Source: a virus
Lineage: Duplodnaviria; Heunggongvirae; Uroviricota; Caudoviricetes
DNA length: 4,386 nt
Virus record (IMG/VR): IMGVR_UViG_2534681998_000004
Reading direction: 5' to 3' (one strand)
Part shown: positions 479-4,304 of the stretch, piece by piece
Layout: the number at the start of each line of letters is the position of its first letter
Numbering within the stretch: position 1 is the first letter of the stretch
The notes under the pieces: model-generated
The model's input: the letters and a program-made list of their open reading frames with translations, nothing else
Told to the model about the DNA's origin: nothing
Databases searched by the model: none
Made by a program: the position numbers and the translations under genes

Positions 479-512
479 ATCTGAGAAACGATTTTGTCGG
501 AGGAAATTTTAA

Positions 513-1228
513 TGGAAACCGTATCTGACGCACTGAAAGCACTGAAAAGAGCCTCTTCACATGTGGTGGCAGCTCGCCTTGGAATTAGTCGTGAAGAGGC
601 TGTCAACGAACTGTGGAAACTGAAACGCCGTGGAGAAGCGGATAACAAGGGGGCGATATGGTGGCTGACTCAGGCTGGTGAAAGTGAACCGGTGTCACCG
701 GTACCGAAAGTGACGGCGCAAATGCTGACAGAGGCGATTGAACAACATGGCCCACAAACGGCGGATGAACTGGCATTGATGTTCGGAATTACCTCCCGCC
801 GGGCGAATTCATCGCTGGCAATGGCAATCAGCAAAGGGTGTCTGATTCGCGTGAATCAGGATGGTAAATTTCGTTACTGCATACCGGGCGTTGATTTACC
901 GGCAGAGCCGAAAGCAGCATCCGTAGCTGAAACGGAGGGTAAAGCCCTTCCTCAGCCAGCTGGTGTTGCGTTACCAGTCCAGGAAACGGCTGCACAGGAA
1001 GAAATTAAAACAGAAGCGGTGGAGGACATTGTGAAGTTGCAGCAATCGTTCACTGAAGCGAAAGCAGATGACCTGATTCTACCATCGCTGCATGTGGCTA
1101 ACCGCGAGCTGCGCCGGGCGAAAAGTAATGTTCAGAAGTGGGAGCGAGTCTGTGCTGCGCTACGGGAACTGAACAAACACAGGGATATTCTCCGGGATAT
1201 TACCGCCACCAGAGAGCAGCAGCGGTGA
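513..1228 (+). CDS. Hypothetical prophage protein, about 238 aa, with two N-terminal winged-helix-like segments, a Pro/Ala/Glu-rich linker and a charged C-terminal helix
   Basis: ATG at 513 preceded by GGAGGA (499-504) at 8-nt spacing; the ORF track's start at 494 is a TTG with no better RBS. Long ORF with ordinary amino-acid composition; stop TGA 1226-1228. Fold assignment is inference from sequence pattern only. Confidence 0.6.
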
Positions 1229-1542
1229 GTGGCTGGAAGAAGTGGCGCTGGGCTGAAATCCTGATACTCCGGCAGTGTGCGGGAACGATGAGAGTCGAAA
1301 GCATCGGTTATCTGATTGGCCGTAGTGAGTCAGCCGTCAGGACGAAAGCGCGGGAACTGGGTATCAGCATGATGTTACGGGGTGATTATCACCAGTCAGC
1401 CAAATGTTCACAGCGTGATATTGAGCTGGCGTGGCAACTGCATCAGCGTGGTGTACCCCGACGGGAAATTGCCGAAAAGTTTGGGATGAAGTTGGGCGCA
1501 GTGGATAACTACGTTTATTTCGACAGGAGGGTTCAGGAGTGA
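1225..1542 (+). CDS. Hypothetical small DNA-binding protein with two HTH-like segments ([36 protein letters not shown] and [20 protein letters not shown])
   Basis: GTG at 1225 overlaps the upstream stop as GTGA (translational-coupling arrangement). An alternative start is ATG 1288, but that would cut off the first HTH-like segment. The track's start at 1138 would overlap the upstream gene by 91 nt. Stop TGA 1540-1542. Confidence 0.5.
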
Positions 1543-1841
1543 GGGTGAGGGTTTATATCGCCGGTCCGATGACGGGATATGAAAATTTTAACCGCGAGGC
1601 ATTTCACAAAACGGAAGAGGTGCTGAAACGGGAAGGGCATACCGTTTTAAACCCGGCAGTACTTCCGGACGGGCTGACTCAGCCACACTACATGGATATT
1701 TGCATGGCAATGCTCCGTTGCGTGGATGCGGTTTACATGCTGAAAGGCTGGCAGCAGTCGGCAGGTGCAGGGGCTGAGCTGGCACTGGAGGAGAAACCGG
1801 GCCATGCGGTGATTTTTCAGGAGGTGGGCAGTGAATATTGA
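1539..1841 (+). CDS. DUF4406-like / nucleoside 2-deoxyribosyltransferase-like small protein (100 aa)
   Basis: GTG start at 1539 overlapping the upstream stop (GTGA), with AGGAGG at 1526-1531 at 7-nt spacing. The N-terminal VYIAGPMTG...N...AF motif followed by V-NPA is, from memory, characteristic of the DUF4406 / deoxyribosyltransferase-like fold. Confidence 0.6.
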   Translation: MRVRVYIAGPMTGYENFNREAFHKTEEVLKREGHTVLNPAVLPDGLTQPHYMDICMAMLRCVDAVYMLKGWQQSAGAGAELALEEKPGHAVIFQEVGSEY

Positions 1842-2148
1842 CCCGGCGATAACGATTGATATGGCCCTGAACGCCGGCCTGGCACTTCTTGGTTATTTCT
1901 ACATTATGTTCTGCAGCGGACGATGGCTGTCACTGTTGTTCATGAAAAAATGGAATAAACGCCGTAAGCAGGAGCAACGCCAGAAGGCAATGGATGCATT
2001 TTTCGAAGCCTTCGGAATTGACGGCATGGAACCAGGGGATCCAGCTCGCGCAATCAGCAGAGGGGGTGTAGTAATCCTTGTATATCGGAGTGAAGAGAAA
2101 AATGACGATCACAAAACAACGTGTAGAAGAAATCATATCCCGCATTGA
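1831..2148 (+). CDS. Hypothetical small membrane protein (one predicted N-terminal TM helix MALNAGLALLGYFYIMFCSGRWLSLLF, then a basic and charged tail)
   Basis: GTG start at 1831 with AGGAGG at 1819-1824 at 6-nt spacing; overlaps the upstream gene's 3' end by 11 nt. The C-terminal extent is uncertain because the next gene may start at 2102. Confidence 0.45.
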   Translation: MNIDPAITIDMALNAGLALLGYFYIMFCSGRWLSLLFMKKWNKRRKQEQRQKAMDAFFEAFGIDGMEPGDPARAISRGGVVILVYRSEEKNDDHKTTCRRNHIPH

Positions 2149-2419
2149 AATGTATGGACATGGTGCAGGGTATATCGCAGACGAGGTTAATGATCTGGCT
2201 ATACTGGCGCTGAATTTATCAAATATCGCGAACCTGAAGCGATACGAGCTTGATATGGGAGGTTGCGACTCGTGCGGTCAGGATTGTGGCGCTGATATGA
2301 CTGAAGATCCTGATGGTGATTATGTCCTGTTTGATGACGTGGTTAAGTTGTTTGAATTTGATACAACCACTCAAAAGTTAGAAATCCCGGCAAAGGAGGC
2401 AGCCAGTGGGCAAGATTGA
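2102..2419 (+). CDS. Hypothetical acidic protein (about 105 aa) with a Cys cluster CDSCGQDCG
   Basis: ATG at 2102 with a purine-rich stretch upstream (GGAG 2087-2090, GAAGAG 2093-2098). The track's start at 2078 is a TTG. Stop TGA 2417-2419. Product unknown. Confidence 0.45.
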   Translation: MTITKQRVEEIISRIEMYGHGAGYIADEVNDLAILALNLSNIANLKRYELDMGGCDSCGQDCGADMTEDPDGDYVLFDDVVKLFEFDTTTQKLEIPAKEAASGQD

Positions 2420-2843
2420 CTATCAGGCACTGCGTGAGGCAGCACAAAACTATCAATCGACGCTGGCGTGGTATCAGGCTACCCCGGACAGCCCAAATGC
2501 TGAACGGGATTGTGATGCGGCTCTTGCTGCGTTTAAGCGTCACATCCGTCATCGGGAAGCGGATATTATCGCTGATTTGCTGGATGGACTGGAAGAAGCA
2601 AAATCACAACTCAACGAGCAGCGTGAGTATTACGAAGGCGTTATCTCTGATGGGAGCAAGCGTATTGCTGAACTGGAAGCGCGGGAAGTTCAATTACCGA
2701 CTCGCTACGACCTTCGATATGGACACCCGATAAATGCAGATGAGCGACATGTCATGATACCTAAAGAAAATGGCAGTTGGCTTTACCTGATTGACCTAGA
2801 ACACGCATTACGCGTCGCTGGCATTCGCATCAAAGGAGAGTGA
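2406..2843 (+). CDS. Ead/Ea22-like prophage protein (145 aa), tentative
   Basis: GTG at 2406 with AAGGAGG at 2392-2398 at 7-nt spacing; overlaps the upstream gene by 14 nt. The N-terminal IDYQALREAA motif resembles, from memory, the N-termini of Ea22-like proteins of E. coli prophages. Stop TGA 2841-2843. Confidence 0.5.
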   Translation: MGKIDYQALREAAQNYQSTLAWYQATPDSPNAERDCDAALAAFKRHIRHREADIIADLLDGLEEAKSQLNEQREYYEGVISDGSKRIAELEAREVQLPTRYDLRYGHPINADERHVMIPKENGSWLYLIDLEHALRVAGIRIKGE

Positions 2844-2844
2844 G

Positions 2845-3036
2845 ATGAACGGACAAATATCAATTGTTCGACCAGGAGCATGTGACGATCGCGAAATACG
2901 AATGATTATTCGTCTGGCGATGGGGAAAACAATAACTGCTCTCATTACTCCAGAAAATCTCGCATTAGCATTAACAGGAAAGTCAGACATGCCAGTAGAG
3001 CTAAAGCTGCGAAATGTTGAGATTAAGGTGAAATAG
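2845..3036 (+). CDS. Hypothetical protein (63 aa)
   Basis: ATG at 2845 starts 1 nt after the upstream stop, with AGGAG at 2833-2837 at 7-nt spacing. Stop TAG 3034-3036. No recognisable family. Confidence 0.5.
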   Translation: MNGQISIVRPGACDDREIRMIIRLAMGKTITALITPENLALALTGKSDMPVELKLRNVEIKVK

Positions 3037-3038
3037 CT

Positions 3039-3596
3039 ATGACCACTATTACCAAAGATCGACTGCTGACAATCCAGCATTGGCGCGAAACATACGGACC
3101 GGGTAGCAACGTTGTGCTTCCAGCAGAAGAAGCGGAAGAGCTGGCACGGATTGCGCTGGCATCACTGGCAGCAGTATCGGATGAACGAGCAGCCTATGAA
3201 TTATTTATGGAGAAGCGTTTCGGAGAATCTGTAGATCGCCGCAGAGCAAAAAATGGCGATAGAGAATACATGGCATGGGATATGGCGCTTGGCTGGATTA
3301 TCTGGTGTCACCGCGCCGCCATGCTTCAGGCTGGAAACTTTCGGGAAAATAAGGGTTCGTCAACCAATAATTTTCGGATAATCTCGGAAACGTCAACCAA
3401 CTCTCCGGCAATCCCTGATGAGGTGTTGTCCGCAATCCTGAAGGTCGCCAGGCTTCGTGCAGATTTCGATGCTTCTGAAGTGGACAGGCGAGGTATCGGT
3501 AGTTGTCTGGATGAGGCCGAGCAAGAACTTATCGTTACCATTAACGAATACGCCAGTCAGATCGCAGTAGAAGCGACACAGGGGGAGAACCAATGA
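3039..3596 (+). CDS. Hypothetical prophage protein (185 aa)
   Basis: ATG at 3039 starts 2 nt after the upstream stop, with AAGGTGA at 3025-3031 at 7-nt spacing. Long ORF with balanced composition; stop TGA 3594-3596. Confidence 0.6.
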   Translation: MTTITKDRLLTIQHWRETYGPGSNVVLPAEEAEELARIALASLAAVSDERAAYELFMEKRFGESVDRRRAKNGDREYMAWDMALGWIIWCHRAAMLQAGNFRENKGSSTNNFRIISETSTNSPAIPDEVLSAILKVARLRADFDASEVDRRGIGSCLDEAEQELIVTINEYASQIAVEATQGENQ

Positions 3597-3670
3597 GCCG
3601 GCCAGATGCATTTGCAGGCGTTGCTATAGCTATTGCTTTTCTAGTATATGTTATTTGTCGGTGGGGGTAA
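3593..3670 (+). CDS. Candidate 25-aa hydrophobic peptide (MSRPDAFAGVAIAIAFLVYVICRWG), not in the ORF track
   Basis: ATG 3593 overlaps the upstream stop as ATGA; GGGGGAGA at 3581-3588 gives about 4-nt spacing; stop TAA 3668-3670. Single predicted TM-like segment. Too short for statistical support; hand-translated. Confidence 0.3.
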   Translation: MSRPDAFAGVAIAIAFLVYVICRWG

Positions 3671-3705
3671 AAACGTTCGCCGGGATTCACACCAAGGGAG
3701 GGAAT

Positions 3706-3810
3706 ATGTCGGATGATATTTCACTGGTAATGGAAGGCGCTCTGGCTGTTATTGCTGTTGTGGGTGTTTACTGCCTGGTTGTGTTTTTGATGGAGCGCCT
3801 GGGGAACTGA
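3706..3810 (+). CDS. Candidate 34-aa small membrane peptide (MSDDISLVMEGALAVIAVVGVYCLVVFLMERLGN), not in the ORF track
   Basis: ATG 3706 preceded by a strong purine-rich SD, AAGGGAGGG (3694-3702); stop TGA 3808-3810. One clear hydrophobic helix. Hand-translated. Confidence 0.4.
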   Translation: MSDDISLVMEGALAVIAVVGVYCLVVFLMERLGN

Positions 3811-3881: not shown

Positions 3882-3896
3882 TGCGGGTGCTTGAGG
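3882..3896 (+). promoter_or_regulatory. hok mRNA 5'-end element complementary to the 3' end (fold-back inhibition, 5' partner)
   Basis: TGCGGGTGCTTGAGG (3882-3896) pairs with CCTCAACGCACCCGCA (4259-4274) over 15 bp with one bulged nucleotide; complementarity checked by hand. Confidence 0.5.
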
Positions 3897-3930
3897 CTGT
3901 CTGCCTCGGGCATGCCACCGTAAGGCAGAC

Positions 3931-4005
3931 AGAGAAAAGCCCCAGTTAACATTACGCGTCCTGCAAGACGCTTAACATTAATCTGAGGCCCAATCTATGC
4001 TTCAC
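3931..4005 (-). ncRNA. sok: Candidate Sok-like antisense RNA (antitoxin of a type I TA system); ends approximate
   Basis: Minus-strand candidate promoter: -35 TTGCCT (+4040..4035), 17-nt spacer, -10 TAACCT (+4017..4012), predicting a start near +4004. The transcript would be antisense to the mok start codon (3997-3999) and its SD (3985-3988), as in plasmid R1 hok/sok. No canonical terminator found; a U-rich run (complement of +3931-3939) is a possible 3' end. Confidence 0.3.
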
Positions 4006-4209
4006 AAACGTAGGTTAGCCTCTTACGCGCCGAAAGGCAAGGAGAAGCAGGTTATGAAGCAGCAAAAGGCGATGTTAATCGCCCTGATCGTCATCTGTTT
4101 AACCGTCATAGTGACGGCACTGGTAACGAGGAAAGACCTCTGCGAGGTACGAATCCGAACCGGCCAGACGGAGGTCGCTGTCTTCACAGCTTACGAACCT
4201 GAGGAGTAA
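3997..4209 (+). CDS. mok: Mok-like in-frame upstream reading frame (70 aa) that contains hok; analogous to the MokC arrangement as I recall it
   Basis: ATG 3997 with GAGG at 3985-3988 at 8-nt spacing; same frame as hok and the same stop. Whether it is translated as a separate product is inferred from the hok-family paradigm. Confidence 0.5.
   Translation: MLHKRRLASYAPKGKEKQVMKQQKAMLIALIVICLTVIVTALVTRKDLCEVRIRTGQTEVAVFTAYEPEE
4054..4209 (+). CDS. hok: Hok/Gef-family type I toxin (51 aa, small membrane peptide)
   Basis: ATG 4054 with AAGGAG at 4039-4044 at 9-nt spacing; stop TAA 4207-4209. The product MKQQKAMLIALIVICLTVIVTALVTRKDLCEVRIRTGQTEVAVFTAYEPEE has the Hok signature (TM helix, then TRK-x-LCE-x-R and EVAAF/EVAVF-x-AYE). 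From memory it is very close to E. coli HokD (RelF) and HokC (Gef). Confidence 0.85.
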   Translation: MKQQKAMLIALIVICLTVIVTALVTRKDLCEVRIRTGQTEVAVFTAYEPEE

Positions 4210-4277: not shown

Positions 4278-4304
4278 AACCCGCTTCGGCGGGTTTTGTT
4301 TTTT
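4278..4304 (+). terminator. Rho-independent terminator of the hok-like transcript
   Basis: Stem AACCCGC (4278-4284), loop TTCG, stem GCGGGTT (4289-4295), followed by TTGTTTTTT (4296-4304). Confidence 0.8.

Follow-up and report, generated by a model that had tools for sequence, protein, structure and literature searches.

The open reading frame at positions 1539-1841 (+ strand) of the window, by which we mean the whole 4,386-nucleotide stretch of viral DNA that was analysed (IMG/VR record IMGVR_UViG_2534681998_000004), encodes a DUF4406 protein, and its assignment by family and fold to the N-(deoxy)ribosyltransferase-like superfamily is close to certain. Reading its active-site residues against those of characterised enzymes, we give about even chances to the reading that this protein, expressed with replication genes, works by a covalent mechanism on Glu80 as a small N-glycosidase or base-exchange enzyme directed at dNMPs. 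The gene, the family name and the likely fold are already known from Pfam, PHROGs and RefSeq, the last of which already names the window allele 'DUF4406 domain-containing protein'. Since gene, family name and fold relationship all stand in public annotation, the finding mostly confirms what has been annotated, for an allele present in hundreds of sequenced O157:H7 genomes. The value that remains lies at the level of the family, which temperate phages of widely differing hosts carry in their replication module and which gave 17,727 clusters at 50% identity in an exhaustive search (E <= 1e-3), making it very large. For this family, the residue analysis provides a concrete and cheap hypothesis consisting of a dNMP substrate, a Glu80 nucleophile and an atypical acid position.

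The 1539-1841 open reading frame is a real gene, and its start is the only uncertainty. It runs from GTG 1539 to a TGA stop at 1839-1841, encodes 100 residues and corresponds to ECs_1513 of prophage Sp6. The sequence strings on which the earlier note had based its reading are present in the product, VYIAGPMTG as residues 5-13 and NPA as residues 38-40, and the open reading frame list and the sequence show VLNPAVLPDGL and, further along, SAGAGAELALEE. Two candidate starts were read in the region 1525-1547 (+ strand) from the sequence and from the starts of homologs. AGGAGG (1525-1530) is located 8 nt 5' of GTG 1539, the start used in the Sakai annotation, and AGGAG (1535-1539) is located 5 nt 5' of GTG 1545, which encodes residue 3 and is equivalent to the position at which the majority of homologs start (MK[IV]YIAGP). 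By sequence, both GTG codons are plausible starts. The stop codon of the upstream HTH gene (TGA 1540-1542) overlaps GTG 1539, which suggests translational coupling, and at its other end the gene shares 11 nt (1831-1841, + strand) with the start of the downstream DUF4752 gene at GTG 1831, an operon-like packing seen in the open reading frame list. No internal stops were present in any of 79 gap-free copies from related prophage loci, and comparison with diverged alleles gave dN/dS values of 0.08-0.2 (Nei-Gojobori). The DUF4406 gene is thus under purifying selection, with dN/dS of about 0.1.

The earlier note had proposed from the letters alone that this protein is DUF4406-like and has a Rossmann-like fold of the deoxyribosyltransferase type, and both proposals were borne out. 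Pfam DUF4406 (PF14359) matched across the whole profile (positions 2-90 of 91) with 115.1 bits against a cut-off of 22 and E = 2e-33, and PHROG 355 matched with E = 4e-43. The profile search that had been suggested as a check therefore succeeded for DUF4406 and failed for the nucleoside 2'-deoxyribosyltransferase family, as PF05014 gave no match even at E <= 10; DUF4406, PF05014 and DUF1937 are families that we take to share one Pfam clan. NCBIfam and PADLOC had no match for the DUF4406 protein or its neighbours. In size and in residues Y6, G9, S74, G76 and E80 the protein is like other members of DUF4406 and PHROG 355, and its gene, like theirs, sits in the early replication module of a temperate phage. 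The conserved family residues Y6, G9, G13, N18, F22, P39, P43, G45, Y51, M52, S74, G76, A77 and E80 are all present, and the conserved A84 is Glu in the window allele.

Structure prediction and comparison had also been suggested as a check, and agreed with the proposed fold. An AlphaFold2 model built from an alignment of 32 homologs had a mean pLDDT of 87.8 and a pTM of 0.82. Strands 4-8, 35-37, 64-67 and 90-93 alternate with helices 19-31, 48-59 and 75-85 in a Rossmann-like alpha/beta arrangement with a parallel sheet, which is nearest to the solved members of the nucleoside 2'-deoxyribosyltransferase (NDT), DNPH1 and MilB groups. Query-normalised TM-scores were 0.67-0.75 for the Foldseek matches in the PDB, which were almost all NDTs, DNPH1/Rcl, MilB and BcmB and had the deoxyribosyltransferases 2a0k and 6evs at the top, and BFVD contained many phage proteins of the same fold already named deoxyribosyltransferase or DUF4406. 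Sequence profiles gave the same neighbours. A profile of 60 diverse DUF4406 members matched the T. brucei deoxyribosyltransferase 2a0k in the PDB with E = 3.9e-5, with weaker matches to LmNDT, BlsM, BcmB, 1t1j and MilB, and profile-profile comparison with a DNPH1 alignment gave E = 1e-4 over 93 columns (hhalign probability only 58%), the DNPH1 query sequence having been verified against PDB chains. The entry 1t1j is a structural-genomics protein of DUF1937, a separate Pfam family which is itself uncharacterised and adds no functional information. Two other searches were set aside: hhalign against a single DNPH1 sequence aligned the N-terminal motif alone (E = 0.14), and a PDB search with the single protein or the narrow alignment A1 returned spurious matches (SIRP-beta, sulfhydrylase).

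Three conserved segments of the protein correspond to the active sites of these enzymes. The codons for Tyr6-Ile-Ala-Gly9-Pro-Met11-Thr-Gly13 (1554-1577, + strand) cover the end of strand beta1 and a glycine-rich loop, as placed by hhalign and by the alignment of the profile to the PDB. Here Tyr6 is aligned to Tyr24 of DNPH1 and, in the T. brucei transferase, to the Tyr of 'KIYIAGP'. Among the 60 diverse members this column holds Tyr in 54 and Phe in five, Gly9 is invariant (60/60) and Met11 is found in 53. The codons for Tyr51-Met-Asp53-Ile-Cys55 (1689-1703, + strand) lie at the start of helix alpha2. Met11 and Tyr51 are aligned to the base-packing residues Ile29 and Ile76 of DNPH1. The codons for Ser74-Ala-Gly76-Ala-Gly-Ala-Glu80 (1758-1778, + strand) encode a [S/D]-x-G-x-x-x-E active-site motif at the start of the helix that follows strand beta3. 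This motif aligns to S98-L-G-V-G-Y-E104 of DNPH1, to S-P-G-T-H-[VI]-E of the CMP hydrolases BlsM and BcmB and to D-C-G-T-A-F-E of the nucleoside transferases TbNDT and LmNDT, so that Glu80 falls on the Glu of all five enzymes. Ser74 was conserved in 60/60, Gly76 in 58/60 and Glu80 in 59/60 of the diverse members. These alignments identify Glu80 as a putative covalent nucleophile and Ser74 as a putative 5'-phosphate ligand.

DNPH1, a 2'-deoxynucleoside 5'-phosphate N-hydrolase that acts on hmdUMP, shares the fold with the DUF4406 protein at about 20% identity, and its Tyr24, Ser98, Gly100 and Glu104 are the counterparts of Tyr6, Ser74, Gly76 and Glu80. The DNPH1 triad consists of Y24, of D80, which protonates the base, and of E104, on which a covalent deoxyribose-phosphate ester forms; the phosphate ligands are S98 and, contributed by a helical extension of the partner subunit, S128' (PMC10603095). 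In MilB, a Phe (F17) replaces Y24 and ribose is accepted (PMC10603095). MilB, BcmB and BlsM, which are N-glycosidases of CMP and hydroxymethyl-CMP, differ from the DUF4406 protein in having Phe at the position of Tyr6 (BlsM 'VFLAGP') and in their length of 160-190 aa with a C-terminal extension. NDTs are described as holding the 5'-OH by Asp or Asn, a position at which nucleotide hydrolases have small uncharged residues (PMC12884076). Column 74 divides the aligned enzymes in this way, with Asp in TbNDT and LmNDT and Ser in BlsM, BcmB and DNPH1. The combination of a nucleotide-type Ser74 with a deoxyribose-type Tyr6 led us to propose that the substrate is a 2'-deoxynucleoside 5'-monophosphate and that the mechanism is covalent, through Glu80; we infer from this residue pattern that the substrate is narrowed toward a deoxynucleoside 5'-monophosphate rather than a nucleoside.

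The nearest functional precedent, by analogy, is the experimentally characterised DmtZ of the Gordonia phage Ghobes and the Arthrobacter phage Wayne, a dAMP hydrolase and deoxyribose-5-phosphate transferase (PMC12884076). As described, DmtZ resembles the DUF4406 protein in being a phage dNMP enzyme of the NDT superfamily with a Tyr/Glu core and an uncharged phosphate site (PMC12884076). It differs in its size of about 145 aa, its five strands, its use of Asn77 as the third triad residue and its link to PurZ0/DutZ in Z-genome phages; no genes of the PurZ0/DutZ type were found in the window or in Sp6. DmtZ shows that the superfamily is capable of unexpected nucleotide chemistry in phages.

The DUF4406 protein is a minimal member of the superfamily, with four strands, three helices and about 98-100 aa, and its gene is a free-standing mosaic cassette in an early-right replication or nin-type operon of a lambdoid prophage. 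On the dNMP-directed reading, it would bind a 2'-deoxynucleoside 5'-monophosphate and cleave the N-glycosidic bond by way of a covalent deoxyribosyl-5-phosphate ester on Glu80. Tyr6 would orient Glu80 and exclude a 2'-OH, with the phosphate held by Ser74 and the Gly9-Gly13 loop. Release of the base to water, as by a DNPH1-like hydrolase, or its exchange in a DmtZ-like transfer would follow. The biological role may be the editing or sanitising of dNMP pools during phage replication. The earlier note had raised, as speculation, an effect on nucleotide pools, on modification and on phage-host conflict; no link to DNA modification or to defence or counter-defence was found (PADLOC negative).

The protein departs from the characterised enzymes in three ways, the third of which is the pair of substitutions in the window allele described further on. 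The general-acid column, to which DNPH1 D80 and the Asn of TbNDT align in two independent alignments, is column 55, and the residue there is Cys. Among the 60 members this column holds Cys in 35, Asp in nine and Gly, Ala, Thr or Ser in the rest. Asp53, two residues earlier, is invariant in enterobacterial relatives and is Asp in 23 of the 60 diverse members, and in 31/60 members neither column 53 nor column 55 is acidic. With Cys55 in this protein and so many members lacking an acid, the catalytic machinery appears incomplete by the DNPH1 or NDT definition. The second departure is at the C-terminus. The window protein ends 20 residues past Glu80, where the family median is 28 and DNPH1 has about 58, and the model stops after strand 90-93, with the fifth strand absent. 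It is therefore without the helical extension that in DNPH1 supplies Ser128' to the neighbouring active site and closes it. It has the Ser six residues before the Glu (S74 = S98). In place of the Glu55/His56 helical element and shielding loop of DNPH1, DUF4406 has the conserved LNPAxLPDGL segment. The DUF4406 protein fits the DNPH1-type hydrolases only in part.

Both departures count against the dNMP-directed reading, as do the hhalign probability of 58%, the finding of name mentions alone for DUF4406 in the literature searched, the substitutions in the window allele, and the failure to find a fixed partner gene or a verified informative domain fusion. Several other explanations were weighed. 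The protein could be a true nucleoside 2'-deoxyribosyltransferase that serves salvage by exchanging the base of a free deoxynucleoside for a free base, and both annotation and matches point that way: PHROG 355 (E = 4e-43) carries this label, many BFVD relatives are so named, the top Foldseek matches in the PDB are 2a0k and 6evs, and the best sequence-profile match in the PDB is TbNDT, with 'YIAGP' in common. The resemblance to the NDTs (L. leichmannii NDT, T. brucei PDT 2a0k, PF05014) extends to the aligned nucleophile Glu and a Foldseek TMq of 0.73. However, the 5'-OH-binding Asp that these enzymes have at column 74 is an invariant Ser here, the state of nucleotide hydrolases, and PF05014 was unmatched; lacking these two defining features, the DUF4406 protein lies outside the nucleoside 2'-deoxyribosyltransferase family proper. 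NDTs, which act on nucleosides, are also longer, and their C-terminal residues, which serve the active site of the partner subunit, are missing from this protein. Neither do names count for much, as the labels on homologs are visibly inconsistent and include MazG-like and dCMP deaminase, and no transglycosylation of nucleosides was seen with phage PF05014 NDTs taken from unmodified contigs (bioRxiv 10.1101/2025.10.22.683976), which means that NDT labels are not reliable predictors. We regard a true nucleoside transferase as unlikely. An action on, or binding of, some other N-glycoside with a good leaving group, such as an immune signal (NAD-derived or another nucleotide) or a nucleotide with a modified or cationic base, would give the protein a role in counter-defence or signalling. 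The two observations that suggest this are the apparent lack of a general acid and the presence of TIR domains among the structural neighbours. NDT, DNPH1 and MilB nevertheless outscored every TIR domain, the sequence motif is of the NDT type (S-x-G-A-x-x-E), Tyr6 argues for a 2'-deoxy sugar, PADLOC was negative and association with known anti-defence genes was not seen, and we consider this explanation improbable.

A bolder proposal, to which we give similarly little credence, is that DUF4406 is a very large class of minimal phage N-glycosidases with non-canonical catalysis, acting on a specific non-canonical or signalling deoxynucleotide in early infection. Conservation of Glu, Tyr and Ser together with the lack of a conserved general acid and of a C-terminal lid would fit such a class, which might, for example, destroy a toxic or defence-generated nucleotide or deplete one dNMP to bias replication. 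If true, phage nin-type regions would carry a widespread and undescribed nucleotide-editing or counter-defence function. A further explanation concerns the window allele rather than the family, and is compatible with any function at the family level: the family may be enzymatic and this copy, in a resident O157:H7 prophage, weakened or inactive. Compared with DUF4406 at large, the window allele has Glu for the near-invariant Ala84 (GAG 1788-1790) and Pro for Leu87 (CCG 1797-1799), both encoded within 1788-1799 (+ strand). Position 84 is Ala in 56/59 homologs and position 87 is Leu in 40/59, while Glu84 and Pro87 occurred in none of the 31 + 59 aligned homologs; the Ala84 column aligns with the conserved Ala108 of DNPH1 and lies one helical turn from Glu80. 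A84E and L87P, absent from these 90 homologs, suggest that the Sp6-lineage copy may be impaired or hypomorphic, as does a dN/dS of about 0.58 against the nearest alleles compared with about 0.1 against diverged ones, a high value that rests on fewer than ten substitutions. Against impairment, the open reading frame is intact, alleles at least 99% identical are present in 278 complete E. coli genomes, and AlphaFold2 folds the protein confidently with Pro87 just past the end of helix 75-85. On balance, an impaired allele seems unlikely.

The dNMP-directed reading includes expression with replication genes, and the genomic setting is that of an early phage module. Prophage Sp6 of E. coli O157:H7 Sakai, like many other O157:H7 genomes, matched the window at 99% identity, and the window represents the early-right accessory part of a lambdoid, Sp6-like E. 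coli O157:H7 prophage. This matches the prophage accessory block in which the earlier note had placed the gene, as it lies between replication gene P and RusA/Q. In Sakai, ECs_1513 is annotated as hypothetical, and within Sp6 it has the replication genes (O-like and P-like) on its 5' side and hok/mok, DUF968, RusA and the antiterminator Q on its 3' side. By Pfam and PHROG matches, the gene order in the window is P-like helicase loader, DUF1627, HTH protein, DUF4406 and DUF4752, followed by PHROG 3126, an Ead/Ea22-like gene, PHROG 1222, a DUF551-related gene and hok/mok. The downstream gene matches Pfam DUF4752 with E = 7.5e-39. The upstream HTH gene (1138-1542 or 1225-1542, + strand) matches PHROG 323, a D5-like transcriptional regulator, with E = 7.6e-24; its mechanical open reading frame begins at 1138, within the last part of the DUF1627 gene (494-1228), and the Sakai start is the equivalent of 1225.

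Genes from 494 to 3036 of the window overlap or abut head to tail. No promoter of its own and no convincing terminator were found near the DUF4406 gene on the + strand, where site counts equalled the shuffled expectation. Together with the head-to-tail overlaps, this indicates that the gene reads as one cistron of an early-right operon. Its neighbours vary. Among 80 close-relative loci, DUF4752 was downstream in 13, an Ead-like gene was downstream in 30 and the HTH gene was upstream in 33. We therefore rejected both DUF4752 (13/80) and the HTH gene (33/80) as a conserved partner, and the DUF4406 gene behaves as a mosaic cassette of its own, tied to no obligate partner. Our scan of viral contigs gave solely relatives with at least 85% identity, and served for dN/dS and neighbour variability, not for distant context. 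Distant homologs were also located in the early module, in Vibrio, Arthrobacter, Mycobacterium and Pseudomonas phages and in one Vibrio prophage, with neighbours including genes for SSB, helicase, exonuclease, RusA, dNMP kinase, DNA methylase and NinB/NinG. Within E. coli, the DUF4406 gene was present in 1115/5426 complete genomes.

Published work and product names gave little guidance on function. No characterised DUF4406 member was found in the literature searched, which held name mentions only, in three papers, and searches of the same literature for ECs1513 and DUF1937 returned nothing relevant. Homologs in deposited phages carry conflicting labels (nucleoside deoxyribosyltransferase, MazG-like pyrophosphatase, deoxycytidylate deaminase and hydrolase), and names this inconsistent are unfit as evidence for function. 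At three loci, homologs are named MazG-like pyrophosphatase (L084:3504-3872), deoxycytidylate deaminase (L085:3480-3854) and MazG-like (L089:3157-3285, a 42-aa fragment), and these conflicting names look like labels propagated from fusion proteins.

Among the long homologs examined, no verified informative domain fusion was found. In 38 such homologs Pfam showed only DUF4406 and unannotated extensions, with one DUF551 and one PF05014 cross-hit, and PHROG and Pfam scans of ten long proteins gave nothing further. A DUF4406-MazG fusion was dropped as a candidate, since the 'MazG-like' protein of Pseudomonas phage Orisa01 is a short open reading frame with a copied label. The one piece of fusion evidence retained is a pair of BFVD proteins of uncultured phage, A0A6J5LQ71 and A0A6J5S4N9 (216 and 462 aa), labelled dATP/dGTP diphosphohydrolase N-terminal domain-containing, in which a DUF4406-like domain is present (TMq 0.81-0.85, 32-39% identity). 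Such a fusion, if real, would couple dNMP production physically to a DUF4406-like domain.

Other features were observed further downstream in the window. The gene at 3039-3596 (+ strand) encodes a 185-aa protein that matches PHROG 14306/660/60 and whose RefSeq neighbours are named DUF551 domain-containing. Here the alignment to O157 genomes is split in two (96% coverage) and the Sakai counterpart is 195 aa long, which suggests that this gene holds an indel or a mosaic joint. A 51-aa open reading frame at 3655-3810 (+ strand), with a hydrophobic C-terminal half (ALAVIAVVGVYCLVVFLMERLGN), is located just 5' of the sok/hok module; in this interval Sakai annotates a different short open reading frame (ECs_5710). 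The module itself is a complete hok/mok-sok type I toxin-antitoxin module at 3885-4209 (+ strand), in which Rfam sok matches 3885-4059 with 114.9 bits and the 70-aa mok/hok open reading frame at 3997-4209 matches Pfam HOK_GEF with E = 3e-23. Directly 3' of the module is a strong terminator-like hairpin at 4278-4295 followed by a T-run.
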